From: an uncultured Gammaproteobacteria bacterium
GTDB taxonomy: Bacteria > Patescibacteriota > Patescibacteriia > VMEV01 > CAYQCH01
Direction of reading: 5' to 3'
DNA length: 64,000 nucleotides
Assembly: GCA_964352335.1 (NCBI GenBank)
Contig: CAYGRO010000004.1
Span: forward strand, 42,970-106,969
Within the stretch, counting starts at the first letter, position 1. Each line of letters opens with the position of its first letter. This document shows positions 23,012 through 43,122 of the stretch, in pieces. Position numbers and translations under genes: made by a program. Under the pieces are notes generated by a model that saw nothing but the letters and a program-made list of their open reading frames with translations, was not told where the DNA came from and did no database searches.

Positions 23012-23358
23012 TTGATTAGTTGACGAATTGTCTTTATTAAGGCATACTGTCGTTAATAACAACTTAGCTTTTTCTAAAGTACTTAGAAACGAGCCCATTA
23101 TTTTGGGTCTCATTTTAAGGAAAGAAGGTCAAATTGGCTGGAAATAGAGATACGGGTTGTTAGAGAAAATCACTTATAAAATAGCCTAGTCGGGGCTAAT
23201 TTTGTTTTTTATAAACAGGTAAGACCTCTTTTGTGTTCTGTCTTCGATATTGTTTATTGGCGACAAAACACAAAAGAATCATAATAAGCAACAACTGACA
23301 ACTAACAACGAACAATTGACAGAAATGTCAGTGGTCAGTCGTCAATTGTAATTAAAGT

Positions 23359-23781
23359 ATGCCAACAATTAGTCAACTTGTGCGAAAACCTCGCAATAGC
23401 AAGAAGAAAAAGTCTAAAATGCCTGCATTGCAAGTAACTTTAGACTCATTGCATAGACGTAAACACACAGTGAAAAAGGGGAGTCCTTTCAAACGTGGTG
23501 TGTGTACAAAAGTAACAACAGTTACACCTAAAAAACCTAACTCAGCTTTACGGAAAATTGCTCGTGTTCGTCTCTCAAATGGGATGGAAGTTACAGCATA
23601 TATTCCAGGTGAAGGTCACAATTTACAAGAACATTCAATCGTATTATTACGAGGTGGTCGTGTAAAAGATCTTGCCGGTGTGCGATATCATGTAGTGCGC
23701 GGTGTCTACGATACACAAGGTATCGATGGTCGAAAACAACGCCGATCAGTTTACGGAACAAGAAAACCGAAAGAATCATAA
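23359..23781 (+). CDS. rpsL: Ribosomal protein S12
   Basis: The [12 protein letters not shown] and [10 protein letters not shown] motifs. Confidence 0.95.
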
Positions 23782-23862
23782 GTAAAATTGTAAAGACGTA
23801 AAAACTGTAAAACCGTAAAGCTTTACGCATTTACAAATTTACGTTTTACGCTTCTAAAAAAT
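23782..23862. repeat. k-mer-iterated inverted-repeat spacer of the gtaaa family
   Basis: gtaaagacgtaaaaactgtaaaaccgtaaagc followed by gctttacgcatttacaaatttacgttttacgc. It shares ctttacgcatttaca with the spacer at 38681-38762. Confidence 0.7.
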
Positions 23863-24330
23863 ATGCGTGGAAAAAAAGCTCCAAAACGTCCAGTAACACC
23901 AGAACCAAAATATGGAAATGTTCAACTGGCAAAATTTATCAATTACGTCATGAAAAGCGGGAAAAAAACAGTAGCACAAAAAATTGTCTACGGTGCTTTT
24001 GATGTTATTGAACAAAAGACAAAAAAGAACCCATTAGAAGTTTTTGAATTAGCGATCAAAAATGTTGGCCCAAACCTAGAGGTAAAGGGGCGACGTGTTG
24101 GTGGTGCTAATTACCAAGTTCCAATTCAAGTAAAAGCTGATCGTCGTTTTATTTTAGCGTCTCGATGGATTATCGAAGCGGCAAATACGAAAAAAGGACG
24201 ACCAATGGCAGAAAAACTTGCTCAAGAATTATTAGATGCATCTAATAAAGAAGGTGGTGCGATGAAAAAACGTGAAAACGTTCAAAAAATGGCAGAAGCT
24301 AATCGTGCTTTCGCTCATTTTGCTCGATAA
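23863..24330 (+). CDS. rpsG: Ribosomal protein S7
   Basis: Conserved S7 sequence. Confidence 0.95.
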
Positions 24331-24416
24331 TCTAATTAAACAAACAAATAATTTATCTATTTGTGACATAAGTTTTGGTTGTCTATTGTGAGATGTCACA
24401 GGTCAAATGTAATTTT

Positions 24417-26540
24417 ATGGCAAGAAAAATCCCTTTAGAAGATGTGCGTAATATCGGAATTATCGCGCATATCGATGCTGGTAAAACAACAACAACAGAA
24501 CGTATTTTGTTCTATACAGGAAAAAACTATAAAATTGGTGAAGTTCACGAAGGTGAAGCAACCATGGATTGGATGGAACAAGAACAAGAACGTGGTATTA
24601 CCATTACAGCTGCGGCAACAACTGCTGCATGGAAAGATCATCAAATCAATATTATTGATACTCCAGGTCACGTAGATTTTACTGTAGAAGTAGAACGATC
24701 ATTACGTGTACTAGACGGTGGTGTTGTGGTATTTGATGGAGTAGCTGGAGTAGAGCCACAATCAGAAACAGTTTGGCGACAAGCTGATAAATATGAAGTG
24801 CCTCGTATTTGTTTTATCAATAAATTAGATCGAACTGGTGCTGATTTTTATTTCGATTTAGGTACTATTCATCAACGATTAACAACAAAAGCACATCCAA
24901 TTCAATTACCAATTGGTGCAGAAGAAGCTTTTGCAGGTGTGATTGATTTAATTAAAATGAAGGCCTATATCTACCAAGATGATTTAGGTGAAAAAATTGA
25001 TGAAGTTGAAATTCCTGCTGACTTAAAAGAAAAAGCTGATCAATACAGACAACAATTACTAGAAGCTATTGTTGAAACAGATGAAGCTTTAATGAATAAA
25101 TTTTTCGAAGGGACAGAATTAACAGAAGAAGAAATCAAAGCTGCTTTACGTAAAGCTACTATTGCTGGAGATGTTGTTCCTGTGCTTTGTGGGACAGCTT
25201 TGAAAAACAAAGGTGTACAAAAATTATTGGATGCTGTTGTTGATTACTTACCTTCTCCATTAGATGTTCCTCCAGTAGAAGGGGTAAATCCAGATAATGA
25301 AGAAGAAGTAATCAAACGAAAAACAGAAGATACTGAGCCATTAACTGCATTAGCATTTAAAGTTGCGGCAGATCCTTTTGTAGGAAAACTTTGTTTCGTG
25401 CGTGTTTATGCGGGTACTTTAAAATCAGGATCTTACATTTTAAATGTAAATACTGGTAAAAAAGAACGTGTAGGGCGTCTCGTTCGTTTACATGCAAATT
25501 CTCGGGAAGAAGTAGATGAAATTCCAGCAGGGGATATTGCTGCTGTTGTTGGATTAAAAGATACTATCACTGGGCATACAATTTGTGACCCAGATCACCC
25601 AATCATGTTAGAAGATATCACTTTCCCAGAACCAGTAATTCAATTGGCTATTGAGCCAAAATCTAAAGCAGATCAAGAAAAACTTGGTGTTGCTTTACAA
25701 AAACTTTCTGAAGAAGATCCTACTTTCCGTGTTCATTCTGATGAAGAAACTGGACAAACAATTATTGCGGGAATGGGAGAACTTCATTTAGACATTATTG
25801 TGGATCGAATGAAACGCGAATTCAATGTAGAAGCGAATATTGGTAAACCTCAAGTATCTTACCGAGAAACAATTCTTGGAAATGCAGAAGCTGAAGGTAA
25901 ATTCGTTAAACAATCAGGTGGTCGTGGTCAATACGGTCATTGTTGGTTACGAGTGAAACCAATTGATGCTGCTGAGCTAACAGAAGAGCAAAAAGAAGCT
26001 AAGCCAGATTTACTCTTCCATGATGAAATTAAAGGTGGTGTTATTCCAAAAGAATTCATCAACCCAATTGAAAAAGGTGTTAAAGAAGCCCTTTCTCGTG
26101 GTGTGGTAGCTGGTTACCCCTTAGTAAATGTTGATGTTACTGTTTATGACGGTTCATACCATGATGTCGACTCTAGTGAAATCGCCTTCAAAATGGCTGG
26201 TTCGATGGCTTTTGTGGCTGCTGCTAAAAAAGCGCAACCAGTATTGCTAGAACCAATGATGGCATTAGAAATCACAACCCCAGAAGAATTTATGGGAGAT
26301 GTGATTGGTGACCTTAGTTCACGTCGTGGACAAGTTGAAGAAATGTTAGATCGTCATGGGGCAAAAGTTGTTATCGGTAAGGCTCCATTAGCAGAAATGT
26401 TTGGTTACGCAACTGACTTGCGTTCTTTAACACAAGGACGTGCAGGATATAGCATGACATTTGCAGACTACGCTGAAGTTCCAAACAATGTAAAAGAAAA
26501 AATTGTTGGACAACGTACTGGTACTGAACCTACCGAGTAA
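24417..26540 (+). CDS. fusA: Elongation factor G
   Basis: The [10 protein letters not shown]-domain motif. The start is placed at MARKIPLE. Confidence 0.95.
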
Positions 26541-26563
26541 GTTAAGTTCAAAAAAACTTTTAA

Positions 26564-26594
26564 ATAGCTCCCAATTTGGGGGCTATTTTTTTAA
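26564..26594 (+). terminator. Rho-independent terminator after fusA
   Basis: The hairpin atagctccc-aattt-gggggctat followed by a T7 run. Confidence 0.7.
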
Positions 26595-26699
26595 CTGAAC
26601 CAAAAGAGAAATTGACAAACAAAATAACGATAATGAGTATTGACATTCTTTGCATTGATGACTAAGATCAGAACACTTTCTTATTGATGCTTTTCGTTT

Positions 26700-27095
26700 A
26701 TGCATTCACAATTTCAAAGACTGTTTCATTTGATTAAGAAAACAGGTGATAATATTATCTTATTAGACCCTGACTCAAATGATCCCTATATTTTGATGAA
26801 CTTAAATGCATACGAAGAGTTACTAGAAAGCTATTCAAATACGAATGCAGGAGAAAGAGTACTTCAGTCAAATCAAGACTCAATCAGACCAGTGAGAAGA
26901 CCACAAATAAAAAAGGTCTCTCAAACTGATGTAGATGAGTCAGAAGTGCTACCTGGTATCGATACAGAAGTTGTTGATCTCAGTGTAGAAGAAAAGGAGT
27001 CTGAACCAGAACAAGGAGAAAAGTACTATTTTGAAGAAGTAGAAGAAACAGAAACAGAAGGAGAAAAAGACGAAAAAGAAAAAGGGGATAACTAA
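26700..27095 (+). CDS. Hypothetical protein with an acidic tail between fusA and tuf
   Basis: 131 aa with an E/D-rich C-terminal half. The N-terminal NIILLDPDSNDPYILMNLNAYEELLE segment loosely resembles the Phd/YefM fold. Confidence 0.4.
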   Translation: MHSQFQRLFHLIKKTGDNIILLDPDSNDPYILMNLNAYEELLESYSNTNAGERVLQSNQDSIRPVRRPQIKKVSQTDVDESEVLPGIDTEVVDLSVEEKESEPEQGEKYYFEEVEETETEGEKDEKEKGDN

Positions 27096-27165
27096 AGTAT
27101 TTTGCTAAAATTAGCAAAATAAACGATCTTTCCACAGCTTACAGAAATAAAAGATAGAGAAAAAC

Positions 27166-27193
27166 TTGCATTTTTGAGATTCTCTGTTATAAT
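27166..27193 (+). promoter_or_regulatory. Sigma70-like promoter upstream of tuf
   Basis: TTGCAT, 16 nt, then TATAAT with an upstream TGT (extended -10-like). Confidence 0.4.
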
Positions 27194-27232
27194 TTCAACA
27201 ATATTTCTCAAACTTTTGAGGTTTTTTTAATA

Positions 27233-27255
27233 GCCCCAGAAACGGGGTTTTTACA
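27233..27255 (+). promoter_or_regulatory. Hairpin plus U-run in the tuf leader (attenuator-like)
   Basis: agccccagaaacggggttttt lies between the promoter and the tuf start codon. Confidence 0.35.
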
Positions 27256-27294
27256 TCTAAAAAAAACTCATCTAAAAAAATAATTAATAAAACT

Positions 27295-28479
27295 ATGGCA
27301 GAGCAATTTGATCGATCAAAACCACATGTCAACATTGGTACAATTGGACACGTTGACCATGGGAAAACAACTCTTACTGCGGCAATTACAACTGTACTTG
27401 CTGAAAAAGGATTTGCAAAAAAACGAAGTTACGCTGATATCGATAACGCTCCTGAAGAAAAGGAACGTGGTATCACAATTGCGACATCTCACCAAGAGTA
27501 TGAAACAGAAAACCGTCACTACGCTCACGTAGATTGTCCAGGACATGCTGATTATGTTAAAAACATGATTACAGGTGCTGCACAAATGGATGGTGGTATT
27601 TTGGTTGTATCTGCTACAGACGGGGTAATGCCTCAAACATCAGAACATATTCTTTTAGCTAAACAAGTAGGAGTTCCTGCTATCGTTGTTTTCATCAATA
27701 AAGTAGATATGGTTGATGATGCTGATTACGTAGATTTAGTAGAAGAAGAAGTTCGTGATCTTTTAAAGAAATACGATTTCCCTGGTGATGAAATCCCAGT
27801 AGTTCGTGGTTCTGCGCTTAAAGCTTTAGAAAATCCAGCTGGAGACGAAGCTAAGCCAATTTTAGAACTCATGAAAGCTATTGATGAATACATCCCAACA
27901 CCAGAACGTGATACTGACAAATCATACCTTATGCCAATTGAAGATGTTTTCTCAATTGAAGGTCGTGGAACTGTAGTTACTGGTCGTATCGAACGTGGAA
28001 TCCTTAAACTAAATGACGAAATTGAAATCGTTGGTTTAAGAGAAACACAAAAAACTGTTGTTACAGGTATTGAAATGTTTAACAAGAATTTAGACGAAGG
28101 ACGAGCTGGTGATAATGCTGGAATCCTTTTACGTGGTCTTAAAAAAGAAGACGTAGAACGTGGACAAGTTCTTGCTGCTCCTGGAACAGTGACTCCTCAT
28201 ACTGAATTTGAAGCTGAATTCTTAGCTTTAACAAAAGAAGAAGGTGGACGTCACAAACCATTTTTTAATGGATATAAACCACAATTCTACTTACGTACAA
28301 CAGATGTAACAGGTGAAGTAACACTACCAGAAGGTACAGAAATGGTTATGCCTGGTGATACAGTTAATGCAAAAGTTAAACTTATTGTTCCTGTTGCTCT
28401 TGAAGAACAACAACGATTTGCTATCCGTGAAGGTGGGCGAACTGTTGGAGCTGGAGTTATTACTAAGATTATCAACTAA
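27295..28479 (+). CDS. tuf: Elongation factor Tu
   Basis: Motifs [15 protein letters not shown] and NKVD. Confidence 0.97.
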
Positions 28480-28524
28480 GGCTTTGGGCCACTCATTTTT
28501 TGAGTGGCCTTCCTTATTGCAAAC

Positions 28525-28857
28525 ATGGCTACGAAGCAAACAACTGAAGAAACGAAAGCAAGAATCCGAATTAAGATTCTGGCCTTTGATCATAAAATCA
28601 TTGACCAATCTACTCGGACGATTATCGAAACTGCTGAACGATCTGGGGCTTCTGTCGTTGGACCGGTACCACTTCCTACTCAAATTAAGAAGTTTACTAC
28701 CAATTCATCTACATTCGTTCATAAAGACGCTCGTGATCAATACGAAATGCGTATTCACAAACGGCTTGTAGATATTCTTGAACCAACTCCTAAAACAGTT
28801 GATTCACTCATGTCTCTAAATCTCCCAGCTGGTGTAGATGTAGAGATCAAAATGTAA
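28525..28857 (+). CDS. rpsJ: Ribosomal protein S10
   Basis: Conserved S10 sequence. The start is placed at MATKQ. Confidence 0.9.
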
Positions 28858-29125
28858 ATAAAATAACTGCTGATTGCTGCTGATATCGCTTCATAATTGT
28901 GAGTCGATATAAGCAGCAATCAATTCTCGGTATTCACACTCAAGAAAGATTCTTAGCAAAGTGCTAAGAAAAACCTTGACTGGGAGTTTACAGAGATGAA
29001 AGGTAAAGGACTATTGATTAAAGTGCTTACAACAACTTTTTCACTCAAATATGTGAAAAGGTCAGAAATAAAGCGATGTATGACACCGTTTTGTTTCTGG
29101 CTTTTTGCTTACTCAGAACACAATT

Positions 29126-29947
29126 ATGAAATTCATTCTAGGTTACAAAAAAGAAATGACTCAACAATATCGTGAAGACGGTACTGTTGTTCCTGTGACT
29201 ATTGTACAAGCTGAACCTGCTATTGTAACTCAAGTTAAGCAGTCAGAAAAAGATGGTTATCATGCTATTCAACTTGGAGTAGGGAAAAGAAATAAAGTTG
29301 GAAAATCTCAAGCTGGTCATCTTAAAACAATCACAAAATCAGGAAGAAAACCTTTTCACAGACTTCGTGAAATTCGTGTAGAAGATGCTTCTACATTTAC
29401 AATTGGAGATAGTATTACTGTAAAAACATTTGCTGCTGGAGATAAAGTAGCTGTTACAGGGACTTCAAAAGGTAAAGGTTTCCAAGGTGTTGTAAAACGG
29501 CATAACTTTGCTGGTTCACCTGCTTCTCATGGGCATAAAGATCAATTACGTATGCCTGGTTCTATTGGTTCTCAAGATCCACAACGTGTTTTTAAAGGAA
29601 CACGTATGGCTGGGAGAATGGGTGGAAAACGAATTACTGTTAAGAACTTAGAAATTATTGCTCTAGATGAGGAAAAAAACCTTTTATTCGTAAAAGGTGC
29701 CGTTCCTGGTGCTAGAAATAGTCTTATTCTTATTGCTGGTAATGGTGAATTGATCAAAGGTGCAAGCATTTTTGATGCTCCAGAAGTTATTGATACAACG
29801 GAAGAAAAAGATGAAACTACTGAAGAAGCTCCAGAAGTAAATGAAGAAAATTCTACTGAAACACCTGATAAGGAAGTAAAAGAAGAAACTATTGAAAAAC
29901 CAAAAGCAGAAGACTCTAAAGAAAGTAATGAATCATCAAGTAAATAG
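29126..29947 (+). CDS. rplC: Ribosomal protein L3 with an acidic C-terminal extension
   Basis: L3 core plus a 50-aa or longer E/T-rich tail. Confidence 0.9.
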   Translation: MKFILGYKKEMTQQYREDGTVVPVTIVQAEPAIVTQVKQSEKDGYHAIQLGVGKRNKVGKSQAGHLKTITKSGRKPFHRLREIRVEDASTFTIGDSITVKTFAAGDKVAVTGTSKGKGFQGVVKRHNFAGSPASHGHKDQLRMPGSIGSQDPQRVFKGTRMAGRMGGKRITVKNLEIIALDEEKNLLFVKGAVPGARNSLILIAGNGELIKGASIFDAPEVIDTTEEKDETTEEAPEVNEENSTETPDKEVKEETIEKPKAEDSKESNESSSK

Positions 29948-29949
29948 AT

Positions 29950-30588: not shown

Positions 30589-30590
30589 AT

Positions 30591-31058: not shown

Positions 31059-31172
31059 ATCAATGCCCCAATGTTTCAGTGCTTCAGTATTACAGTGATG
31101 ACCATCACTTCAACACTGAGACACTGAAGCACTCTAGCAATGAAACACTGAAACAATTCAATACTGAAATTT
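31059..31172. repeat. k-mer-iterated inverted-repeat spacer of the cagtg/cactg family
   Basis: gtttcagtgcttcagtattacagtgatg ... cactgagacactgaagcactc...aaacactgaaac. Confidence 0.7.
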
Positions 31173-32853: not shown

Positions 32854-32936
32854 ATTTCAGCCTGTAGCTAGTGACTAGTCGTTTGTAAGATGTACAAACA
32901 ACCAGCTACTAGCTACGAGCTAATAGCAATAATTAT
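32854..32936. repeat. k-mer-iterated inverted-repeat spacer of the ctgtagc family
   Basis: cctgtagctagtgactagtcgtttgta...tacaaacaaccagctactagctacgagc. Confidence 0.7.
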
Positions 32937-33674
32937 ATGGGACAAAAAGTAAATCCAATTGGGTTTCGACTCGGTGTCATCAAAGACTGGCAGTCAAAAT
33001 GGTATGCTAATAAGCAGAACTATCCTGCCATGCTTGAACAAGATATCAAGATTCGAAAATACCTCAAAAAAGAACTAAAGGAGTCCTTAGTGAATGCTAT
33101 TGATATTGAACGATCTCGAAAAAATGTTGTTATTAATGCTCATGTTGCAAAACCAGGTTTAGTTATTGGTCGCGGTGGAGCTGGAATTGAAAAGCTTAAA
33201 AAGCATATTCAACAAAAATTCCTTCCACAAAAGACTAATGTACAAATCAATGTGCAAGAAGTGAAACAACCAAATCGTCATGCTGCTATTGTTTTACAAA
33301 CAATTGCAACAGATCTTGAAAAACGTACTGCCTTTAGACGAGCAATGAAACAAGCTGCTGGTCGTATCGAAAGAGAAGGAGTAAAAGGATTCAAAATTCA
33401 AGTGAAAGGACGATTAAATGGTGCCGAAATTGCTCGTAGCGAATCTATCTCTCATGGTCTTATTCCATTGCACACATTGCGTGCTGATGTAGACTATTCT
33501 CGAGGTGTTGCTCATACAACGTATGGAGTAATTGGAATCAAAGTATGGATCTATAAGGGAGAAGTCTTTGAAAAAAAGAAAGTGGAAAAAAAGGAAGCGA
33601 CTCCAACAACAAAAAAAGCTCCAGTAAAAAAAGCTTCTAAACCAAAAAAAGAAGAAAAAGAAGCAGTCAAATAA
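32937..33674 (+). CDS. rpsC: Ribosomal protein S3 with a Lys-rich tail
   Basis: Conserved S3 sequence. Confidence 0.95.
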   Translation: MGQKVNPIGFRLGVIKDWQSKWYANKQNYPAMLEQDIKIRKYLKKELKESLVNAIDIERSRKNVVINAHVAKPGLVIGRGGAGIEKLKKHIQQKFLPQKTNVQINVQEVKQPNRHAAIVLQTIATDLEKRTAFRRAMKQAAGRIEREGVKGFKIQVKGRLNGAEIARSESISHGLIPLHTLRADVDYSRGVAHTTYGVIGIKVWIYKGEVFEKKKVEKKEATPTTKKAPVKKASKPKKEEKEAVK

Positions 33675-33755
33675 TATACTGCCTGTAGCCTGTGGCTTGT
33701 CGCTTGTACCTATACGAGCAACAAGCCACGAGCTACAAGCTCTACTCATAAATCT
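33675..33755. repeat. k-mer-iterated inverted-repeat spacer of the ctgtagc family
   Basis: cctgtagcctgtggcttgtcgcttgta...tacgagcaacaagccacgagctacaag. Confidence 0.7.
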
Positions 33756-34399: not shown

Positions 34400-34411
34400 C
34401 TAGTTTGAACT

Positions 34412-34657: not shown

Positions 34658-34677
34658 AGAGCATTTGAAATAGAAAT

Positions 34678-35049: not shown

Positions 35050-35053
35050 TGTT

Positions 35054-35344: not shown

Positions 35345-35426
35345 ATTGATGCCAGTGGCCAGTGGCTAGTAGCTTGTAGAAATACTAAAAGCTACCAGCT
35401 ACTAGCTACAGGCTACTAGAAAAACT
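35345..35426. repeat. k-mer-iterated inverted-repeat spacer of the ctgtagc family
   Basis: ccagtggccagtggctagtagcttgtag...ctaccagctactagctacaggctactag. Confidence 0.7.
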
Positions 35427-35984: not shown

Positions 35985-36002
35985 GTACTATTACGAATAC
36001 CT

Positions 36003-36188
36003 ATGGCTACTGAGGCACAAAGAGCAAAATCTCGAAAAAAACCAAAGTACTCAACGCGTATTGTACGTCGTTGTTGGCGATGTGGTCGTCAACGCGGTTA
36101 TATGCGTCGATTTAACCTTTGTCGAATTTGCTTTCGAGAACTTGCAAGTCAAGGACAAGTTCCGGGAGTTCGTAAGAGTTCTTGGTAA
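36003..36188 (+). CDS. rpsZ: Ribosomal protein S14, zinc-binding short type
   Basis: 61 aa with CWRCG...CRIC. Confidence 0.9.
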
Positions 36189-36206
36189 GAATGAATCTAT
36201 CTAAAA

Positions 36207-36635
36207 ATGACTATGGGAATGACAAACGATCCAATTAGTGACATGCTTACACGCATCAGAAACGCTTCAGCGGTTAGAAAACCTGAGGTTGTGATGCCTT
36301 ATTCGAAATTAAAGCATAAAATTGCTGACATCCTTTCTACAGAAGGTTATGTTGGTAAAATTACGAAAGTTGAACCAGATACTACAAAACCAGGTTCATC
36401 TCGTTTTGCTGAACTTCGAATTGGGTTAAAATATGATGAAGAAAAGCAACCAACTATCAATAATTTGAAGCGTATTAGTAAACCAGGTTTACGGATCTAT
36501 AAAGGATCTGATCGACTTCCTGTTGTGCTTAATCACTTAGGTATTGCTATTCTTTCAACTTCTCAAGGTCTTATGACTAATAATGAAGCAAGAAAGAAAG
36601 GTATTGGTGGGGAAGTTCTTTGCGAAGTCTATTAA
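36207..36635 (+). CDS. rpsH: Ribosomal protein S8 (true start possibly 36213-36219)
   Basis: The DPISDMLTRIRNA motif. Confidence 0.92.
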   Translation: MTMGMTNDPISDMLTRIRNASAVRKPEVVMPYSKLKHKIADILSTEGYVGKITKVEPDTTKPGSSRFAELRIGLKYDEEKQPTINNLKRISKPGLRIYKGSDRLPVVLNHLGIAILSTSQGLMTNNEARKKGIGGEVLCEVY

Positions 36636-36714
36636 AAAACCATTGACCATTGACATGTGACCTCTGACAAAGTAAGGTCAAATGTCAATAGTCAAGGGTC
36701 AAATGTAAAAAATT
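36636..36714. repeat. k-mer-iterated inverted-repeat spacer of the ttgac/gtcaa family
   Basis: ccattgaccattgacatgtgacctctgac...ggtcaaatgtcaatagtcaagggtcaaatg. Confidence 0.7.
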
Positions 36715-37257
36715 ATGTCTAGAATCGGAAAACAACTTATTGAAATCCCAAATGGTGTAGAATTAACTGTCACTGATGGTTTAGTGAAAGCAAAATCATC
36801 TAAGGGAGAACTTACATTGCAACTCCCAAAAGAGTTAACTCTTCATATTGATGGGAATCAGGCATCTGTGAAAGTTGAAAATGAAGGTGATTATCGACAA
36901 AATGTTTTATGGGGAACAAATGCAAGTTTAGTTTTGAATATGGTAAAAGGTGTTCATGAAGGTTATTCAAAACAATTAGAAGTAAACGGAATCGGATATA
37001 AAGTTGCTTTATCTGGAAAAAAACTTACATTAAACTTAGGGTTTTCTCATGCAATTGATTATGAATTACCTGCTGGAATTGATGCTAATGTAGAAAAGAA
37101 CCTTATTACAATTTCTGGAATTGACAAACAACAAGTAGGTCAAGTTGCTGCTCAAATTCGTTCATACAAAAAACCTGAACCTTATAAAGGAAAAGGGATT
37201 AAATACGTTGATGAAGTCATCCGTCGAAAAGCTGGTAAAGCTGCCGGTGGTGAATAA
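36715..37257 (+). CDS. rplF: Ribosomal protein L6
   Basis: Conserved L6 sequence. Confidence 0.95.
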
Positions 37258-37262
37258 AGTTT

Positions 37263-37622
37263 ATGAATAAGAAACTACAAAAAGTCATTCAAACCCAACG
37301 TCAACGTCGTGTAAAACGAGTACGCGCGAAGATTTCTGGTACAACAACAACACCTCGTCTTGCTGTTTATCGAAGTTTAACAAACTTTACTGCTCAGTTA
37401 ATTGATGATCAAAAAGGTCATACAATTGCCTTCGTTGATCAAAAGAAATTAGGAAAAAAAGGAAAACCACTTGAATTAGCGACTGAATTAGGAAAGAAAA
37501 TGGCTGAAGAAGCGAAAAAAGCTGGTATAACCTCTATTGTTTTCGATCGTCGTCATTATAAATATCATGGACGCGTAAAAGCTTTTGCAGAAGCTGCAAG
37601 AGAAGGCGGTCTACAATTCTAG
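37263..37622 (+). CDS. rplR: Ribosomal protein L18
   Basis: Conserved L18 sequence. Confidence 0.9.
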
Positions 37623-37640
37623 TTACAATTACAAATAATT

Positions 37641-38231
37641 ATGTCTGAAACATCTAAACCAACTGAATCAAAAGAAGTGACTGAAAAGAAATCAGCTTCT
37701 ACTCCAAATCAAAGAAATGGAGAAAAGCGACAATCTTCTCGTCCAAGACGTCCACGTAAGCCACGTGAAGAACAAGAATTTGATCAAAAAATCATTGATG
37801 TTTCACGTGTTACTCGTGTAACAGAAGGTGGTAAACAAATGTCTTTTAGAGCAACTGTTGCTATTGGAGATAGAAAAGGACGTGTTGCTGTTGGATTAGG
37901 AAAAGGATTAGATGTTACAAATGCTATTAATAAAGCAGTTGGGCGTGCTAAAAAAGACTTAGTAACTATTCCATTAGATGATGTTGGAAGTATTCCACAT
38001 GAGTTAACAGAAAAATTTGGAGCAGCTAAAATCATGATGCGACCAGCAAAACAAGGGACTGGTATTATTGCAGGTGGTGTTATGCGAGTTATTTTAGAAT
38101 TATCTGGTATTAGAAATGTTGTTGGTAAAATGAATGGTGCGAAGAATAAAATTAATAATTCTAAAGCAACTATTGAAGCATTAAAACGTTTACAAACTGA
38201 AACAGCACGAAATGCTCAACGTGGTAAATAA
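37641..38231 (+). CDS. rpsE: Ribosomal protein S5 with a basic N-terminal extension of about 40 aa
   Basis: S5 core. It is directly followed by L15 with no L30 gene between. Confidence 0.92.
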   Translation: MSETSKPTESKEVTEKKSASTPNQRNGEKRQSSRPRRPRKPREEQEFDQKIIDVSRVTRVTEGGKQMSFRATVAIGDRKGRVAVGLGKGLDVTNAINKAVGRAKKDLVTIPLDDVGSIPHELTEKFGAAKIMMRPAKQGTGIIAGGVMRVILELSGIRNVVGKMNGAKNKINNSKATIEALKRLQTETARNAQRGK

Positions 38232-38236
38232 ATCCT

Positions 38237-38680
38237 ATGTCTAACTTACAATCACACAATTTACAAGGTCCAAAAGGTGATGCTAAACGAAAGCGTAAAC
38301 GACTTGGTCGTGGTAATGCTTCTGGTTCAGGAACTTATGCTGGACGTGGTCTTAAAGGACAAAAATCGCGTTCTGGTGTTAGTGGTTTAAAACTAAAAGG
38401 GATTCGTCGAAGAATTCTTTCTATTCCAAAATTACGAGGGTTCACAAGTCTTTCTGCAAAAAATGCAGTAGTAAATCTTGGTGAATTAGAACAGGCTTTC
38501 ACTGCTGGAGCAATTGTTTCTCCAAAAACATTAGTGAAAAAAGGTTTGATTGTTACCCCAAGAAATGGTGTGAAAATTCTTAGCGAAGGATCATTAACAA
38601 AAGCACTTACATTTAGAAAGGTAAAAGCATCAGCTACTGCTAAAGAAAAAATTGAAAAAGCTGGTGGGAAGTTTGAATAA
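38237..38680 (+). CDS. rplO: Ribosomal protein L15
   Basis: Conserved L15 sequence. Confidence 0.92.
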   Translation: MSNLQSHNLQGPKGDAKRKRKRLGRGNASGSGTYAGRGLKGQKSRSGVSGLKLKGIRRRILSIPKLRGFTSLSAKNAVVNLGELEQAFTAGAIVSPKTLVKKGLIVTPRNGVKILSEGSLTKALTFRKVKASATAKEKIEKAGGKFE

Positions 38681-38762
38681 AATCGTAAACAACGTAAACT
38701 TGTAAAAACGTAAAATCTTATTAATTCTTCTTTACGATTTTACACCTTTACGCATTTACAAT
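38681..38762. repeat. k-mer-iterated inverted-repeat spacer of the gtaaa family
   Basis: cgtaaacaacgtaaacttgtaaaaacgtaaaatc...tttacgattttacacctttacgcatttac. Confidence 0.7.
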
Positions 38763-40031
38763 ATGGCTAGTAAACTGAAACAAGTATTCCAAGTAAAAGA
38801 TTTACGGAAAAGCATTCTCTTCGTTTTAGCAATGCTTTTTTTGTATCGTGTTTTAGCTCATATCCCTGTACCTGGAGTAAATACAGATAATCTGGCTGCT
38901 TTTTTTGAATCAAATCAATTATTAGGTTTAGTAAATCTTTTTTCTGGAGGTGGTCTTCAAAGCTTTTCTTTAGCTGCTTTGGGAGTTGCTCCATATATTA
39001 CTGCTTCAATTATTTTCCAATTATTGGTGATGATTGTTCCTAGTTTAGAAGAATTACAAAAAGAAGGTGAGTCTGGTCAACAAAAAATTAATCAATGGAC
39101 TCGATGGGTGAGTGTTCCATTAGCTTTTATTCAGTCTTTTGGTTTCATTACCGTAATTAGACAACAAAGTCAGTTTGATATTGCTTCTACAATGACTCCA
39201 ACACAAATCGCTATTGCAATGGTTGCAATGACTGCTGGTTCTGTCTTCTTGATGTGGATTGGTGAGTTGATTTCTGAAAAGAATATTGGAAACGGTATTT
39301 CTTTAATGATTTTTGCTGGTATCGTTGCTGGTTTACCTACAGTATTGCAACAAACTGTTGTTTCATTTGATCAATCACAAATCTTTAATATTTTGATTTT
39401 TGCGGCAATTACATTAATCACAATTATTGCCATTGTCTTTATTACAGAAGGGCAAAGAAATGTTCCTGTATCATATGCACGAATGTCGAATACTGGTGAT
39501 AATGTAGATTCTCATTTGCCAATTCGTGTGAATATGGCTGGTGTAATTCCAATTATCTTTGCTATTTCTGTTATTTTATTTCCACCAACGATTGCTCAAT
39601 TCTTAATATCAGCACAAAGCCAATGGGTTGTTGATGCTGCTAATTGGGTTATTGAATTATTTAATAATGGATTATTTTACGGAGTTATTTACTTTATTGC
39701 TGTTGTTGTTTTCACCTTCTTTTACTCAGGTGTTATTTTCAAGCCAGATCAAGTTGCTGAAAACTTACAAAAACAAGGAGCTTTTGTTCCTGGAATTAGA
39801 CCTGGAAAACCAACAGAAGAATACCTTCAATTTATTGTAAACAGAATCATGTTAACAGGTGCTTTGTTCTTAGGTATCGTTGCTATTTTACCTTTGATTG
39901 TTCAAGAATTTACAGGATTACAAAATCTTATTGTTGGAGGTACCTCAATTTTGATCGTTGTGGCTGTTGTTATTGATATTGTTCAACAAATTAACTCTCA
40001 ATTAACAATGAGAGATTACGACGCACTATAA
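38763..40031 (+). CDS. secY: Preprotein translocase SecY
   Basis: 10-TM SecY sequence. Confidence 0.95.
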   Translation: MASKLKQVFQVKDLRKSILFVLAMLFLYRVLAHIPVPGVNTDNLAAFFESNQLLGLVNLFSGGGLQSFSLAALGVAPYITASIIFQLLVMIVPSLEELQKEGESGQQKINQWTRWVSVPLAFIQSFGFITVIRQQSQFDIASTMTPTQIAIAMVAMTAGSVFLMWIGELISEKNIGNGISLMIFAGIVAGLPTVLQQTVVSFDQSQIFNILIFAAITLITIIAIVFITEGQRNVPVSYARMSNTGDNVDSHLPIRVNMAGVIPIIFAISVILFPPTIAQFLISAQSQWVVDAANWVIELFNNGLFYGVIYFIAVVVFTFFYSGVIFKPDQVAENLQKQGAFVPGIRPGKPTEEYLQFIVNRIMLTGALFLGIVAILPLIVQEFTGLQNLIVGGTSILIVVAVVIDIVQQINSQLTMRDYDAL

Positions 40032-40183
40032 AGAAGGAACTATTTGATGTAAAAATGCTCCGCTGAATGTCGGGGCATTTTTATTGCCAAAACCTCTAAA
40101 AATGCTATAGTTTCAATACTTTACAAGGATAATCAGATATTTACTGCTTTAAGGCTATAAAAGCTTTATTGCTTTCTTAACAT

Positions 40184-40837
40184 ATGAATCAGCCAACGAT
40201 TATTATCATGGGGTCTGCAGGGTCTGGAAAAGGAACTCAAGGACAATTACTAGAAGAACAATTAGGGTATGAAATAGTAGAAGCTGGAGCGATTTTTAGA
40301 AAAACGGCTCTAATGGACACTGAGCTAGGTCGCAAAGTAAAGCACATTAATGATTCTGGTGGACATGCTGATGATGAGTTGATCACAGAGCTTATGCGTG
40401 AACATATGAAAGATCTTTCTTCTGAAACATCACTTCTGATTGATGGGTATCCTCGAACAATGGGGCAAGCTGATAGATTAGAGGCATTGTTAAAAGACTC
40501 TGGGCATAACCCTGAAAATATTGTTGCGGTATGGATTAATGTTCCACGTGAAGAAACAGAACGTCGATTATTAAATCGATCGCAATGTACTGTTTGTAAA
40601 ACAGTATTTATGACACGAGAGGTCACACAATGTCCTCACTGTAATGGAGAAGTCAAACCTCGTGATTATGATAAGCCAGAAGCAATCAAAAAACGATTAG
40701 ATTTTTTTGATGAAAAGTCGAAACCTGTTATTGAGTATTATCGGGAACAAGGAAAATTGATTGATGTAAATGGTGAACAAGAAGTTGCTCATGTCTTTGA
40801 AGAAATCAAAGAAAAACTAAAACCCTATATTAAATAG
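40184..40837 (+). CDS. adk: Adenylate kinase with a Zn-finger lid
   Basis: GSAGSGKGTQ P-loop and lid CTVC...CPHC. Confidence 0.92.
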   Translation: MNQPTIIIMGSAGSGKGTQGQLLEEQLGYEIVEAGAIFRKTALMDTELGRKVKHINDSGGHADDELITELMREHMKDLSSETSLLIDGYPRTMGQADRLEALLKDSGHNPENIVAVWINVPREETERRLLNRSQCTVCKTVFMTREVTQCPHCNGEVKPRDYDKPEAIKKRLDFFDEKSKPVIEYYREQGKLIDVNGEQEVAHVFEEIKEKLKPYIK

Positions 40838-40939
40838 ACAAATGCAGATTAAAGACAGATTAACTCCAGACAAATACAGTCATCTGCACTAGTCTGAATC
40901 TAATCTGAACTTATCTGAACAAGTCTCTGTGAATCAGCT
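40838..40939. repeat. k-mer-iterated inverted-repeat spacer of the cagat/atctg family
   Basis: gcagattaaagacagattaactccagacaaatacagtcatctgc...tagtctgaatctaatctgaacttatctgaac. Confidence 0.65.
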
Positions 40940-41719
40940 ATGGTCATTGTAAAAAATAAAGAGCAAATTGATGGGATTAGAAAAAGTTGCAAATTACTTG
41001 CAGAGGTTTTAGCTATGGTGGGTAAGCAAGTAAGACCAGGAGTAAGCCCAAAAGAATTAGATGTATTGGCAGAAAAATTGATTCGAGAAGCAGGAGGGAA
41101 ACCTGCTTTTAAAGGGTATAGAACAATGCCAGGTATTAAAGCATTTCCTTCTACTATTTGTGCTTCTGTTAATGATATTGTCGTTCATGGTTTTGGTGAT
41201 TCCGATGAGCCGTTAAAAGAAGGGGATATAATCGGTATTGATTGTGGGATAAATCTAAATGAGTATTATTCTGATATGGCAAAAACTTTTGCTGTTGGAA
41301 AAATTGATCCAGAAATCCAAAAAATGATGGACGTAACAGAAAAATCACTTTATAAGGGGATTGAGCAAATGAAACCAGGAGTTTCCATTCGAGCTATTTC
41401 AGCTGCAATTGAAAATCATATACAACCACATGGATATGGAATCATTAGAGGTTTTGCTGGACATGGAGTTGGGTTACAAGTTCATGAAGACCCGTGGATT
41501 CCAAATTATGTAGATGATCACTTAGAAGATAGTTTGTCTTTGGTAATGCAACCTGGTCATGTATTTGCGATTGAGCCAATGGTGACAAATGGGGGAGAAG
41601 ATGTAGAAATTCTTAGTGATGGGTGGTCAGTACAAACGGATGATCATTCTATTAGCGCTCATTTTGAGCATACTGTACTTGTTACAGAAGATGGGTATGA
41701 AATCTTAACATTATTGTGA
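40940..41719 (+). CDS. map: Methionine aminopeptidase type I
   Basis: Metal-ligand motifs including IVVHGFGDSD. Confidence 0.9.
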   Translation: MVIVKNKEQIDGIRKSCKLLAEVLAMVGKQVRPGVSPKELDVLAEKLIREAGGKPAFKGYRTMPGIKAFPSTICASVNDIVVHGFGDSDEPLKEGDIIGIDCGINLNEYYSDMAKTFAVGKIDPEIQKMMDVTEKSLYKGIEQMKPGVSIRAISAAIENHIQPHGYGIIRGFAGHGVGLQVHEDPWIPNYVDDHLEDSLSLVMQPGHVFAIEPMVTNGGEDVEILSDGWSVQTDDHSISAHFEHTVLVTEDGYEILTLL

Positions 41720-41810
41720 TGCGAATCTGCGAATACATTCGAATCTACAAATCATTACATATATTTGTAGATTAGTGTTCATTCGTATATTAGCATCACA
41801 CATTCGTATA
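41720..41810. repeat. MITE-like palindromic repeat, copy A
   Basis: gattcgaatctacaaat...atttgtagatt...agcatcacacattcgta. Confidence 0.6.
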
Positions 41811-42223
41811 TGAGGTATTTAGGAGTTGATTATGGTTCAAGTTATATTGGATTAGCAATGGGAGATGATGATAGCTATTTAGCTATGGCATTTGATACCA
41901 TTTTAGAAAAAGATGTAAAAAGACAATTGTCCGTTATTGAGCAAATTGTTTTAGATGAAGATATTGATCAAGTAATTGTTGGGTATCCATTGAGTCTTGA
42001 TGGTGGAGAATCTGATCAAACAACGGAAACAATTAGTTTTATCACAGAGTTAAGTGGAAAGCTTGGTATTCCAGTTGAAAAAGAAGATGAACGACTGACT
42101 TCTCAATTTGCACAAACTCTCATCAAAGAAGCAGAAGGCTCTAGTGCTCAAGATGAACATGCGCATGCTGCTGCTTCTGTTTTACAATCCTATTTAGATC
42201 GCATGAAAAACGAAGTTTCATAA
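41810..42223 (+). CDS. ruvX: RuvX/YqgF Holliday-junction-resolvase-like nuclease
   Basis: The N-terminus MRYLGVDYGSSYIGLAMGD. Confidence 0.8.
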   Translation: MRYLGVDYGSSYIGLAMGDDDSYLAMAFDTILEKDVKRQLSVIEQIVLDEDIDQVIVGYPLSLDGGESDQTTETISFITELSGKLGIPVEKEDERLTSQFAQTLIKEAEGSSAQDEHAHAAASVLQSYLDRMKNEVS

Positions 42224-42285
42224 ATCAGCAAGTAGGGATCATATAGCATTTATATAGAATGATCCTTGATATATGATCCCAGTTT

Positions 42286-43059
42286 ATGACATATAAAACC
42301 AAAGCCATTGTGCTCAAGAGTAAAGCTTGGCCAAGAAATGCTCGGTTATATACTTTATATTCAGAAAAATTTGGAAAAATAAAAGGCGTGGCAGCTGGGG
42401 TACAAAAAATCAAAAGTAAAGTCGCTGGTCATTTACAGCCTTTTACTATTGTTGAGGTTATGATGGCAAAAGGGCGTTCCATAGATCGACTTGCACAAAG
42501 TCGTTTTATGAAAGGTTATACTTCTTTTGGAAATGATTTCGATTCTCTTATTCGAGGATCATATGTATTAGAAATAATTGACGCATTAACCAGTGAAGGG
42601 GTAGCTGATTTTGAAATTTGGCAATTGATCGAAGAACTTTTTGAAGAATTAAATGAACAAAGTATTTGGGGAGTAGGACAATTTGATTATCATCAAAAAG
42701 AAAAATTCGATTTGCTGATTCGCTTATTTGCGCTAAAGTTATTAGATAGATTTGGTTTTTGTCCAGAATTGTATAATTGTCTAATTTGTAGAGAATTATT
42801 AAAACCAGAGGACTTATTTTTTTCTATTAGTCAAAGTGGGATGTTTTGTATTAATTGTCGGTCTGATCAATATCCTCATAAACAAGTTCCAATTGAATTA
42901 GTTAAATTGCTTCGTAGTTCATTAAAACAACCCTTAGCGCAGTTATCACGAGTCGTTGTTCCATCCGAATTACAAAAACAAACCATTGTGAATATTGATC
43001 AAATGGTCATGACACAATTACAAAAACCACTGAAAATTTTACCTTATCTTTCATCATGA
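42286..43059 (+). CDS. recO: DNA repair protein RecO
   Basis: N-terminal OB-fold sequence and the C-terminal Zn motif CLICR...CINCR. Confidence 0.8.
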   Translation: MTYKTKAIVLKSKAWPRNARLYTLYSEKFGKIKGVAAGVQKIKSKVAGHLQPFTIVEVMMAKGRSIDRLAQSRFMKGYTSFGNDFDSLIRGSYVLEIIDALTSEGVADFEIWQLIEELFEELNEQSIWGVGQFDYHQKEKFDLLIRLFALKLLDRFGFCPELYNCLICRELLKPEDLFFSISQSGMFCINCRSDQYPHKQVPIELVKLLRSSLKQPLAQLSRVVVPSELQKQTIVNIDQMVMTQLQKPLKILPYLSS

Positions 43060-43122
43060 GACACGTTTCGTGATACGTGGTTCAATATGGACCATGTACC
43101 ATGACACCCATGTACTATATTT

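Follow-up and report, generated by a model that had tools for sequence, protein, structure and literature searches.

What are the long hairpins that occupy one gene spacer after another in the ribosomal-protein region of this genome: structures that serve the junction in which they lie, or copies of a dispersed repeat? The host is a Patescibacteria (candidate-phyla-radiation, CPR) bacterium whose genome is almost devoid of Shine-Dalgarno sites, and the window is the whole stretch of 64 kb that was analysed. Between 23.3 and 43.1 kb, seven spacers contain strongly periodic hairpins, in which a unit of 7–8 nt is iterated three to five times and followed by its reverse complement; three additional spacers contain weaker versions, and two contain plain palindromes (map|ruvX and ruvX|recO) without clear periodicity. 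The original observation of a shared spacer architecture is confirmed; the units, described there as 5–8-mers, are rather 7–8 nt long with a conserved 5-nt core. The rest of the window holds at least eight more copies or half-copies, and the elements are not specific to the ribosomal operon. As anticipated, the architecture far exceeds what shuffled sequence yields: the window contains 19 long ungapped hairpins (score ≥12) against 0–2 in ten dinucleotide shuffles, and eight periodic hairpins against 0–1.

The elements are non-coding, measure about 55–90 nt and extend over the whole spacer, from stop codon to next start codon. The median distance from the stem base is 4 nt to the stop and 8 nt to the start, and the gap between hairpin and next start is 8–16 nt. 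Each arm consists of three to five or more units of 7–9 nt, built from a conserved 5-nt core and variable linkers of 2–3 nt. Several unrelated cores (GTAAA, GTAGC, TTGAC, CAGTG and CAGAT) coexist in this one genome, and one core can occupy either arm, for example, CACTGAC belongs to the 5′ arm at 52402, whereas CACTGA at 31102 belongs to a 3′ arm. The sense strand is enriched in stops and depleted in ATG, and elements are found between co-directional genes no more and no less often than expected from the baseline frequency of junctions of this kind. None of the elements matches an Rfam family. No transposase, RAYT, integrase or other mobilising gene was found within the 64-kb window.

All coordinates refer to the forward strand. 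Tandem Repeats Finder (TRF), used as an independent method, detects arrays of period 7/8 in the two arms of several elements. A1 (23782..23856, TRF-supported) fills the S12|S7 spacer with 4.6 GTAAAnnn units followed by 3.9 TTTACnnn units, and A2 (38682..38762, TRF-supported), in the L15|secY spacer, has 4.6 CGTAAAnn and about four TTTACnnn units; both have period 8 and have CTTTACGCATTTACA in common, and the A2 sequence is present in identical form in an independent Logan contig. D1 (31060..31169, L23|L2, period 8) starts with three to four TTCAGTGC-type units and continues with a longer 3′ array of about eight CACTGAnn units (TRF: 5.5 copies of AACACTGA). Three period-7 elements form one family: B1 (32859..32921, L22|S3), with CTGTAGC/CTAGTGA units and then GCTAC units, B2 (33681..33740, S3|L16), and the TRF-supported B3 (35351..35420, L24|L5), with 2.9 copies each of GCCAGTG and AGCTACC; B1 and B3 have AGCTACTAGCTAC in common. 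C1 (36639..36710, S8|L6, period 7, TRF-supported) combines CATTGAC-type units with 4.9 GTCAAnn units. Directly upstream of rpsL (S12), C2 (23291..23349, period 7) has the arms ACAACTGACAACTAACAACGAACAATTGA (5′) and TGTCAGTGGTCAGTCGTCAATTG (3′), with periodicities of 0.77 and 0.64 (p≤0.002) and an AACAACT array in TRF. E1 (40845..40920, adk|map, period about 10, TRF-supported), made of CAGATTAA-type units and then 3.8 copies of ATCTGAACTA, is the weakest member. G1 (43061..43113, recO|ndh-like spacer) has ACGTG/CATG-type units with a weak period of 7 (p 0.04–0.07). F1 (41720..41795, map|ruvX), an imperfect palindrome, belongs to the CGAATCTAC family and is homologous to F2–F4; its arm periodicity is not significant against shuffles. 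The ruvX|recO spacer holds a plain inverted repeat, GGGATCATATA / TATATGATCCC (42235..42280, z −2.8), whose lack of periodicity makes its membership doubtful.

Elsewhere in the window, B4 (22294..22362, TRF-supported), with AGTAGCA units and then CCTAC units, lies upstream of an M50-peptidase-like gene. Further copies of the CGAATCTAC family are F2 (47482..47578), F3 (58624..58713), upstream of a ribonucleotide reductase gene, and F4 (60571..60651), downstream of it. C3 (52402..52527) has about 11 ACTGACC (CACTGAC) units, then about four GTCAGTn units (TRF: period 7, 10.9 copies, score 103); its array begins inside fur, among the final four codons, and provides that gene with its TAA stop. The fur–iscS spacer had been listed with those of the 23.3–43.1 kb interval; it does carry an element, but the spacer lies at 52414-52532, outside that interval. 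Two half elements complete the set. At 16675..16709, four TTTACnnn units immediately precede a start codon, with neither a GTAAA arm nor a hairpin; at 53667..53702, 3.8 TTTTACGC-type units (TRF-supported) fill a 36-nt spacer, the complementary arm is absent and the fold is 0.0 kcal/mol.

Stable folding had been predicted for the spacers, and most of them have z-scores of about −3 to −9: S3|L16 (−38.0 kcal/mol, z −8.8), L24|L5 (−37.8, z −5.6), L23|L2 (−33.0, z −5.7), L22|S3 (−28.6, z −5.0), S8|L6 (−27.6, z −6.1), map|ruvX (−22.3, z −3.8), recO|ndh (−21.2, z −3.4), S12|S7 (−17.2, z −3.1) and L15|secY (−17.1, z −6.3). The exceptions are E1, with a sense fold of −19.9 kcal/mol (z −1.5 only) against −31.7 for the antisense strand, and C2, with −14.7 (z −2.4, weak) against −25.4. 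At lags of 7 or 8 the arms reach autocorrelations of 0.54–0.79, and families A–E differ from shuffles at p≤0.01. The arms are able to pair in several registers. Of eight elements tested, seven pair best in register 0: complementarity is 0.77–0.88 for B1–B3, C1, C3 and D1, against 0.59–0.78 after sliding by one period, and 0.68 versus 0.57–0.65 for A2. A1 is the exception, having no outstanding ungapped register. A·C mismatches outnumber G·U mismatches (47:20 and 83:51), sense-strand stems are not enriched in G·U, and folding of the antisense strand is as stable or more so. The mismatch pattern and the antisense folding point to symmetry at the DNA level rather than selection on the sense RNA.

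The copies are related across junctions. B1–B3 align across the entire spacer, as do F1–F4, and exact 13–15-mers are shared between spacers where none is expected by chance; the two exact strings originally reported as shared each occur exactly twice, at the positions given (0 expected). In a relative, L013, two copies, at L23|L2 and S3|L16, share 97% identity across 97 nt, loop included, and a second family has four to five copies. Families are genome-specific, with several per genome, copies at separate junctions can be near-identical, and one family can occur at unrelated junctions and outside operons. The unbalanced arrays at 52402-52527 and 31060-31169 and the half elements show slippage-type change in situ, one arm being able to gain units alone. 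Since identical sequences are present in independent assemblies, the elements are not an assembly artefact.

Comparison of orthologous spacers, which had been suggested as a check, showed that occupancy is not conserved. The medians of these spacers in 80 relatives are 5–30 nt, versus about 80 nt in the window. In a close relative, L082, whose S3 is 89% identical and whose 4-fold sites are 59% identical, six junctions that carry elements in the window have spacers of 3–23 nt (L23|L2 6 nt, L22|S3 11 nt, S3|L16 23 nt, L24|L5 3 nt, map|ruvX 11 nt and ruvX|recO 17 nt), and one junction without an element in the window carries one. Comparison of filled with empty sites revealed neither target-site duplications nor a conserved end of the element. 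All three L082 elements are built on a single unit, GTAGnnn, among them a 78-nt hairpin at S8|L6; at the two junctions occupied in both genomes, S12|S7 and S8|L6, the unit differs and the element length is equal. L091 has the synteny of the window, yet is nearly element-free. In L044 the L15|secY junction holds a half element with a single array, and in L015 an array starts inside the end of the L15 gene and uses its stop codon. By contrast, a truly conserved structured spacer of the same operon, S10|L3, keeps its sequence and covaries, so conservation of the elements would have been detectable. The elements are therefore not conserved regulators, and their occupancy changes fast between close relatives, in line with the earlier suggestion of a genome-specific hairpin repeat family.

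The design is widespread. A survey of 1.24 Mb from 80 Patescibacteria loci yielded 35 periodic hairpins, 31 of them in ribosomal-protein spacers from 14 genomes, and 14 or more other Patescibacteria genomes share the design with unrelated units. The GTAAA-type version is found at no fewer than 120 metagenome loci, including Uhrbacteria-like and Prevotellaceae-like contigs, of which the latter also carries other unit families. In gut/rumen contigs the GTAAA-type versions have U-rich 3′ arms and, of 91 that were placed, 40 lie between convergent genes, 5–9 nt after both stops. Spacer length in the clade of the window is near-constant, at 78–85 nt. This constancy, together with the occurrence of a single architecture in two phyla despite unrelated units, hints at constraint; a purely selfish or neutral model leaves both the recurrence and the spacer length unexplained.

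Could each hairpin be a cis-acting RNA element under selection within the polycistronic mRNA, that is, an RNase III-type site, a 3′-exonuclease barrier setting segment stability, or a device for translational coupling or insulation without Shine-Dalgarno sites? The stable interrupted stems of about 22–30 bp without a U-tract, their location within co-transcribed units, their closeness to both codons in a genome nearly free of Shine-Dalgarno sites, the stop-rich and ATG-poor sense strand, the preference for in-register pairing and the equal lengths of S12|S7 and S8|L6 elements made of different units in L082 all speak for such a role. I nevertheless regard it as doubtful: fast turnover and the lack of a sense-strand G·U signature argue against site-specific selected RNA structures, as do the antisense folding, the presence of one family at unrelated junctions and outside operons, the baseline co-directional share and the contrast with S10|L3. 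Termination or attenuation subdividing the ribosomal-protein cluster is very improbable. Long hairpins immediately 3′ of stop codons and the convergent gut/rumen copies with U-rich 3′ arms would suit it, but no T-run follows the elements of the window and a sense-strand terminator scan calls none of them. Real terminators with T-runs, followed by promoter-like sites, occupy other spacers (fusA|orf131, orf131|tuf, tuf|S10 and secY|adk), and they split what had been taken for a single very long transcription unit; the periodic hairpins sit within the resulting predicted units. With 8–16 nt to the next start and no room for a promoter, termination would silence essential genes. The elements are neither terminators nor known RNAs.

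Alternatively, each element could have arisen in place, slippage building a local 7–8-mer array and an intramolecular template switch copying it inverted, with no transfer between sites. Single-array half elements in the window and in L044, strongly unbalanced arrays, arrays that begin in the upstream gene and use its stop (fur, and L15 in L015) and the variation of the unit between spacers are what this would produce. It is unlikely all the same, since independent slippage would not produce the loops, flanks and unit variants that separate junctions have in common (the 97% identical L013 pair, B1–B3, F1–F4); the shared exact 13–15-mers and the single GTAGnnn unit of L082 also stand against it. 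Highly unlikely, too, is that the arrays are multivalent protein-binding sites on DNA or RNA (for ribosomal protein S1, a cold-shock protein or a nucleoid protein, for example) masked by the complementary array. A conserved core at regular spacing and half elements directly upstream of start codons recall the heptamers of Beggiatoaceae (TAACTGA; PMC4679880) and Nostoc (10.1101/2022.06.06.494920), for which the idea has been proposed, but unrelated cores coexist here, differ between close relatives at the same junction and occur in either arm, so one sequence-specific binder cannot explain them all.

The preferred explanation, with a probability of about 0.55, is that the elements are REP/MITE-like dispersed palindromic repeats with minisatellite arms, resembling REP, MITE and foldback elements in function. 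New copies would arise by a copy-and-paste or conversion process at the DNA level; replication slippage and arm-to-arm correction may then shift unit number and sequence, so that the unit would change while the architecture stays. Exact stop-to-start filling follows from insertion into very short spacers, but selection would account for it as well, and so would a mechanism of replacement or conversion. Within operons, the elements are predicted, on sequence grounds, to be transcribed within the polycistronic mRNA and to fold into 22–30-bp interrupted stems without a U-tract. Such inserts may be tolerated because they fold on themselves: they would avoid pairing with neighbouring start regions, which in a Shine-Dalgarno-less genome presumably must remain unstructured, and would keep stop and start codons close. 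As neither codon is more than about 10 nt from the stem base, ribosomes that terminate at the stop would melt the base of the stem and free the next start; 3′–5′ exonucleases could likewise be held up by the hairpin. The elements may in this way influence mRNA stability or couple translation, but probably as a by-product or a later use; neither effect would explain why each copy exists.

How do these elements compare with known systems? STRR are tandem heptamer repeats of heterocystous cyanobacteria. TAACTGA heptamer arrays precede start codons in Shine-Dalgarno-poor Beggiatoaceae, and also occur in cyanobacteria and Bacteroidetes (PMC4679880), and heptamer repeats lie near start codons in Nostoc (10.1101/2022.06.06.494920). 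These repeats resemble the present elements in their 7-nt units with 2–10 or more tandem copies, their intergenic position, often ending a few nucleotides before a start codon and also inside ribosomal-protein operons, the scarcity of Shine-Dalgarno sites in the spacers, and stop-carrying units that may overlap gene ends. They are, however, direct, with essentially one unit per genome, and predicted to be unstructured, whereas here the reverse complement comes after the array to give a long hairpin, and the units of one genome are of several unrelated kinds. MIRU (mycobacterial interspersed repetitive units), of 40–100 nt, lie in intercistronic spacers of operons, fill the stop-to-start gap and consist of direct tandem repeats with short ORFs that overlap the adjacent stop and start codons. 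Intercistronic placement and stop-to-start filling are common to both, but the present elements are palindromic and stop-rich. Bidirectional intrinsic terminators (cited in PMC13613805) resemble the GTAAAAAG-type gut/rumen versions, with convergent genes, A-rich 5′ arms and U-rich 3′ arms; the window copies differ in lying between co-transcribed genes, without T-runs, and mostly are not A/U-tract hairpins. TIGR arrays (TIGR-Tas), frequent in CPR bacteria, are clustered tandem 36-nt units, each with two 8–12-nt spacers, box C/D motifs and an adjacent tas gene (PMC12045711). They too are short periodic repeats with palindromic segments and poor sequence conservation in CPR genomes, but the elements described here are single dispersed hairpins with no associated gene, 7–9-nt units and 2–3-nt variable linkers.

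Other parallels are dispersed palindromes. REP elements have been proposed to stabilise upstream mRNA segments. The REP/BIME/REPIN sequences of proteobacteria (PMC3116915, PMC3733652, PMC3184786) are likewise short, high-copy extragenic imperfect palindromes, often intercistronic in operons and transcribed as hairpins, with genome-specific families and presence/absence turnover. Their stems of 20–40 nt are, however, G+C-rich and not internally periodic, in contrast to the A+T-rich arms of tandem 7–9-nt units found here; the GTAG/CGTC end tag of REP appears in some families only, the 64-kb window contains no RAYT, and the host phylum is different. A Porphyromonas gingivalis MITE carries a minisatellite between inverted repeats (PMC4596501). 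That minisatellite does not itself form the inverted repeats, whereas here the arrays are the arms. MITEs and foldback elements are also non-autonomous, dispersed and self-complementary; no parent insertion sequence, target-site duplication or conserved termini were identified for the present elements, which, at 55–90 nt, are far smaller. Foldback elements such as Drosophila FB have inverted arms of short tandem repeats, and it is this arm design, tandem units followed by their inverse, that they and the elements described here have in common.

The original prediction held that spacers between 23281 and 43122 consist of an iterated k-mer followed by its iterated reverse complement. Read directly, the spacers match this description, and both exact strings that they had been said to share are present. 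RNA folding gave single long interrupted stems of -17 to -38 kcal/mol, with z-scores of -3.1 to -8.8 relative to dinucleotide shuffles, the exceptions being the spacer between adk and map (adk–map; z -1.5) and the element upstream of S12 (z -2.4). An ungapped hairpin scan detected 19 hairpins in the window versus 0–2 in ten shuffles; for periodic hairpins the figures were 8 versus 0–1. Autocorrelation of the arms at lag 7 or 8 amounted to 0.54–0.79 and was significant for families A to E (cores: GTAAA in A, GTAGC/GTGGC in B, TTGAC/CTGAC in C and CAGTG in D), while by the same procedure arm periodicity was not significant in the CGAATCTAC family, F. Independently of autocorrelation, Tandem Repeats Finder found both arms to contain arrays of period 7/8. 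The design also occurs outside the ribosomal cluster: the 64 kb contain about 20 copies or half-copies, all intergenic and falling into alignable families, with further copies at 22294–22362, 47482–47578, 49958–49999, 52402–52527, 58624–58713 and 60571–60651, and half elements made of one array only at 16675–16709 and 53667–53702. The observation is thus borne out, and it extends well past 23281–43122 and past this genome. A separate repeat family of G+C-rich palindromes with CCCCTCC/GGAGGGG-type motifs, folding down to -63 kcal/mol in a 36% G+C host that hardly uses Shine-Dalgarno (SD) sequences, lies at 9122–9239, 18942–19064, 54348–54482 and 56872–56947; similar motifs occur in three related loci (L005, L054 and L067).

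The host is a Patescibacteria (candidate phyla radiation, CPR) bacterium. In a collection with one genome per species, its SecY reaches no more than about 63% identity to those of Buchanan-, Falkow-, Magasanik- and Uhrbacteria MAGs. The window has about 36% G+C, and the + strand carries nearly all genes. An assembly artefact was ruled out by identical sequences in independent assemblies, among them an assembly of run ERR3534985. Pfam and NCBIfam confirmed the gene names previously given to the junctions. The genes flanking the spacer called fur–iscS also exist (fur, 52030–52413; a class-V aminotransferase gene, 52533–53666), but this spacer lies outside 23281–43122. Downstream of map the order is ruvX, recO and an NDH-2-like oxidoreductase gene. 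The single very long transcription unit that had been proposed is not what is found, as it is split at fusA–orf131, orf131–tuf, tuf–S10 and secY–adk by canonical terminators (G+C stem and T-run), each followed by a promoter-like site; the hairpin spacers in question lie inside the units left by these splits. SD sites are almost absent from the genome, upstream regions being A/T-rich, usually with T at -1, and all 67 relatives assessed (loci L002–L081) are likewise SD-poor, with SD motifs at 0–35% of ribosomal-protein genes.

Several other features of the region deserve mention. The ORF of 131 aa between fusA and tuf (26700–27095) has its own promoter-like site and terminators on either side; it has no Pfam or NCBIfam match, and counterparts occupy the same position in L082, the close relative described below (123 aa), and in related loci L088 (129 aa) and L089 (121 aa). 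Sizeable terminal extensions beyond the Pfam domain are carried by L23 (30591–31058; 155 aa, domain at residues 68–149 only), L22 (32323–32853; 176 aa, domain at residues 6–109) and S3 (32937–33674; 245 aa). The segment 60553–63999, 3' of the ribonucleotide reductase gene, has no ORFs other than short ones on the - strand and includes long, apparently non-coding stretches of 1173 and 888 nt, an F-family element and coding-like sequence at 63513–63765; a gene that has decayed or been split is a possible explanation.

The repeated unit, 7–9 nt long, comprises a conserved 5-nt core and a variable 2–3-nt linker, so that the stem is a run of 5–7-bp helices separated by small internal loops. Since both arms are periodic, arms slid by one unit pair almost as well: complementarity is 0.77–0.88 in register 0, where the arms are aligned unslid, versus 0.59–0.78 after a slide of one unit. 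Register 0 was the best in 7 of the 8 elements tested, and in A1, a copy of family A, no ungapped register was prominent. Some arrays are unbalanced, with about 11 versus 4 units at 52402–52527 and about 4 versus 8 at 31060–31169. Elements fill their spacers, in relatives at a median of 4 nt from the stop and 8 nt from the next start, and likewise in the window. The ACTGACC array that begins at 52402 supplies the last four codons of fur and its TAA stop (52402–52413); the repeat therefore overlaps and ends a coding sequence. The end of the L15 gene in related locus L015, built of AAAGTTCATAA units, behaves in the same way. Within elements, both strands show a moderate excess of stop triplets (z about +3.5 and +3.2), and the sense strand has a deficit of ATG (z -3.6). 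Spacers measure 78–85 nt in the window's own clade; a quantised element size was rejected as a general property, given that wider relatives have element-bearing spacers of 69–155 nt.

Comparison with relatives reveals gain and loss of these elements. Across 80 related loci, orthologous junctions have median spacers of only 5–30 nt, and the spacers of about 80 nt in the window are therefore gains. The same loci contain, in 1.24 Mb, 35 array-then-inverse-array hairpins built of unrelated units, 31 of them in ribosomal-protein spacers of 14 genomes, at scattered junctions; expansion is rare at the tightly coupled L3–L4, L6–L18 and L29–S17 and frequent at S8–L6 and L15–secY. Hardly any periodic hairpin lies outside intergenic DNA, and 34 of 39 lie between co-directional genes, which equals the baseline share of such junctions and hence is no enrichment. 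Much closer relatives were found by protein search. In one of these, L082, whose sequence is identical in four independent runs, S3 is 89% identical, synteny is that of the window and 4-fold degenerate sites are 59% identical. Its spacers at L23–L2, L22–S3, S3–L16, L24–L5, map–ruvX and ruvX–recO measure 3–23 nt, and all six are element-filled in the window. Conversely, L2–S19 is an 83-nt periodic hairpin of the GTAG type in L082, whereas it is 14 nt in the window. At S12–S7 and S8–L6, the L082 hairpins have the length of those in the window but are made of GTAGnnn units, and alignment identity between the two genomes is about 60%, equal to that of 4-fold degenerate sites. In a more distant relative, L091 (S3 71% identical), nearly every spacer is 0–15 nt. 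At L2–S19, loci L088 (6164–6246), L089 (9077–9161) and L091 (176–260) carry an 83–85-nt non-periodic hairpin followed by a conserved TCTCTTAATCAACACTT tail. Another relative, L013, contains two copies at different junctions that are 97% identical across 97 nt, loop included, and a second element family of four to five copies; the near-identity of copies at different junctions demonstrates copying between sites.

These data are best fitted by a dispersed palindromic repeat of the REP/MITE kind, with short minisatellites for arms. It is observed that the elements form families, are dispersed and have near-identical copies at different sites, that they are gained and lost rapidly, that their unit number changes in place and that their arms pair in several registers. 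Among the roles that the original prediction put forward, that of a hairpin repeat family is upheld by the families, the dispersed copies and the gain and loss between relatives. Once inserted, an element would be co-transcribed and folded in vivo; self-complementarity probably makes the insert tolerable where start sites, as in this genome, would have to stay free of structure. Coupling and a barrier to exonucleases are possible side effects of the hairpin.

The main rival is that the hairpins are RNA elements under selection. They do fold, yet transition mismatches in the stems favor A.C over G.U on the sense strand (47 versus 20 in the window, 83 versus 51 in relatives), and the antisense fold is equal or better in 17 of 23 window elements. 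Both trends stem in part from element composition (A>T, C>=G), and there is no signature of selection for sense-strand RNA structure. Covariation in family B comes down to 2 compensated pairs in 3 copies, which is too few. A conserved leader of the Rfam type was discarded, the elements being missing from the same junctions in close relatives. A conserved RNA would have been seen, because conservation was detectable in those relatives at the long S10–L3 spacer (28858–29104), where the sequence is conserved and stems covary. That spacer (median 252 nt in relatives; counterparts at 6019–6243 in L082, 3033–3362 in L088 and 6076–6345 in L089) includes a hairpin at 28871–28922, a variable stem-loop closed by a CTCAAG/CTTGA helix and, across the start region of L3, another hairpin (AAAAGGTCAGAAA...TTTCTGGCTTTT); it has no Rfam match and is a candidate ribosomal-protein leader or operator. 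Two element-bearing junctions, S12–S7 and L24–L5, correspond to the S7 and S8 operator sites of E. coli. Operator mimicry was rejected there, given that the same families occur at unrelated junctions and that the L082 junctions are empty or different.

Terminators, protein-binding arrays and local origin by slippage plus template switching were also weighed. For the window, a terminator role was rejected: no periodic hairpin was called as an intrinsic terminator on the sense strand, bona fide terminators being called elsewhere in the region, and the elements lack terminator, promoter and Rfam features alike. A search of the whole window at Rfam gathering score gave no match, and relaxing the cutoff to E<=1 for 20.7–23.4 and 28.4–43.2 kb yielded only sub-threshold matches resembling miRNA precursors; a tRNA/tmRNA scan of the window returned nothing. 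As to local origin, unit number does change in place, and copying between sites is demonstrated in L013. A dedicated regulatory role for the hairpins is not supported, and the REP/MITE-like repeat remains the reading that best accommodates the data.

The architecture reaches beyond this clade. A metagenome scan for three GTAAA cores at 8-nt spacing followed by three TTTAC cores returned at least 120 loci (L092–L211). Many of the matches listed stem from assemblies of human gut and rumen, where the units include GGTAAAAA; in such contigs, periodic hairpins of the GGTAAAAA/TTTTTACC type occur commonly (for example L105, 12522–12590). By protein clustering at 90%, one listed locus groups with Xylanibacter rarus (Prevotellaceae) and another with Uhrbacteria; elements occur in two SD-poor phyla. 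Of 91 placed elements among the matches listed, 40 lie between convergent genes, at medians of 5 and 9 nt after the two stops, which is the position of a bidirectional terminator, while the listed CPR-like loci fill co-directional spacers, as in the window. Periodic hairpins with other units are also present on the Prevotellaceae-like contig, and L105 carries four of them (one TTAAGAG, three of the AAGGT/ACGGT type).

CPR genomes are small and tightly packed; here about 80 nt at many highly expressed operon junctions are repeats that close relatives lack. Reduced genomes thus have a source from which they actively gain intergenic DNA. As a marker of recent change in a genome the elements are convenient; for annotation they are a trap, as they can resemble conserved regulatory RNA. 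Should the hairpins modulate coupling, stability or termination, ribosomal-protein stoichiometry would be affected in unculturable organisms. A bolder proposal, which I consider unlikely, is that iterated-unit-plus-inverse hairpins form an undescribed class of prokaryotic repeat, defined by architecture (7–9-nt periodic arms, multi-register pairing), shared by Patescibacteria and Bacteroidota, both largely devoid of SD initiation, and acting as a working hairpin. If so, units would turn over by concerted evolution with position and size kept, the hairpins would couple or insulate the translation of neighbouring cistrons in CPR operons and act as bidirectional terminators in Bacteroidales, and a structure-recognising propagation mechanism would be implied. 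Because the architecture recurs with unrelated units in many Patescibacteria and at least one Prevotellaceae-like gut contig, a census by structure could delimit a broad class of repeats and test whether it is linked to SD-independent translation.

No description of an iterated-unit-then-inverse hairpin was found in the literature searched. TIGR arrays, in which tandem units of about 36 nt, carrying dual spacers and box C/D motifs, are clustered beside a Tas (Nop-domain) gene (PMC12045711), were set aside together with CRISPR-like arrays, since the unit here is 7–9 nt, with one hairpin per spacer and no associated gene. The resemblance to REP/REPIN sequences is closer: the elements are short extragenic imperfect palindromes with many copies per genome. 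REPs bear a conserved GTAG or CGTC tetranucleotide at one palindrome end (PMC3733652), whereas GTAG occurs here in family B (GCCTGTAGC) and in every unit of the L082 family but is absent from A (GTAAA), C (TTGAC), D and E. No RAYT (Y1 transposase) domain was detected with Pfam or NCBIfam in the 58 window ORFs scanned, a set that leaves aside several ribosomal-protein genes named by order and size only, secY, adk, tuf and others. The window contains no insertion sequence, and a mobilising enzyme was not found within it. Filled and empty sites of the window and L082 showed no target-site duplication, in a comparison where neutral sites are only 59% identical and ancestral spacers measure 3–23 nt. 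The defining features of REPs (end tag, RAYT) and of MITEs (target-site duplication, parent insertion sequence) thus fail or were not seen in the sequence covered here; in location and dynamics, the elements nonetheless behave like REP/BIME or MITE sequences. With the STRR/TAACTGA heptamers they share head-to-tail 7-nt units in intergenic positions, often just 5' of starts. In SD-poor bacteria, those heptamers are direct repeats with one dominant unit per genome and no predicted structure (PMC4679880; see also 10.1101/2022.06.06.494920). By contrast, the arrays described here are joined to their reverse complement, fold stably and coexist in at least five unrelated units.
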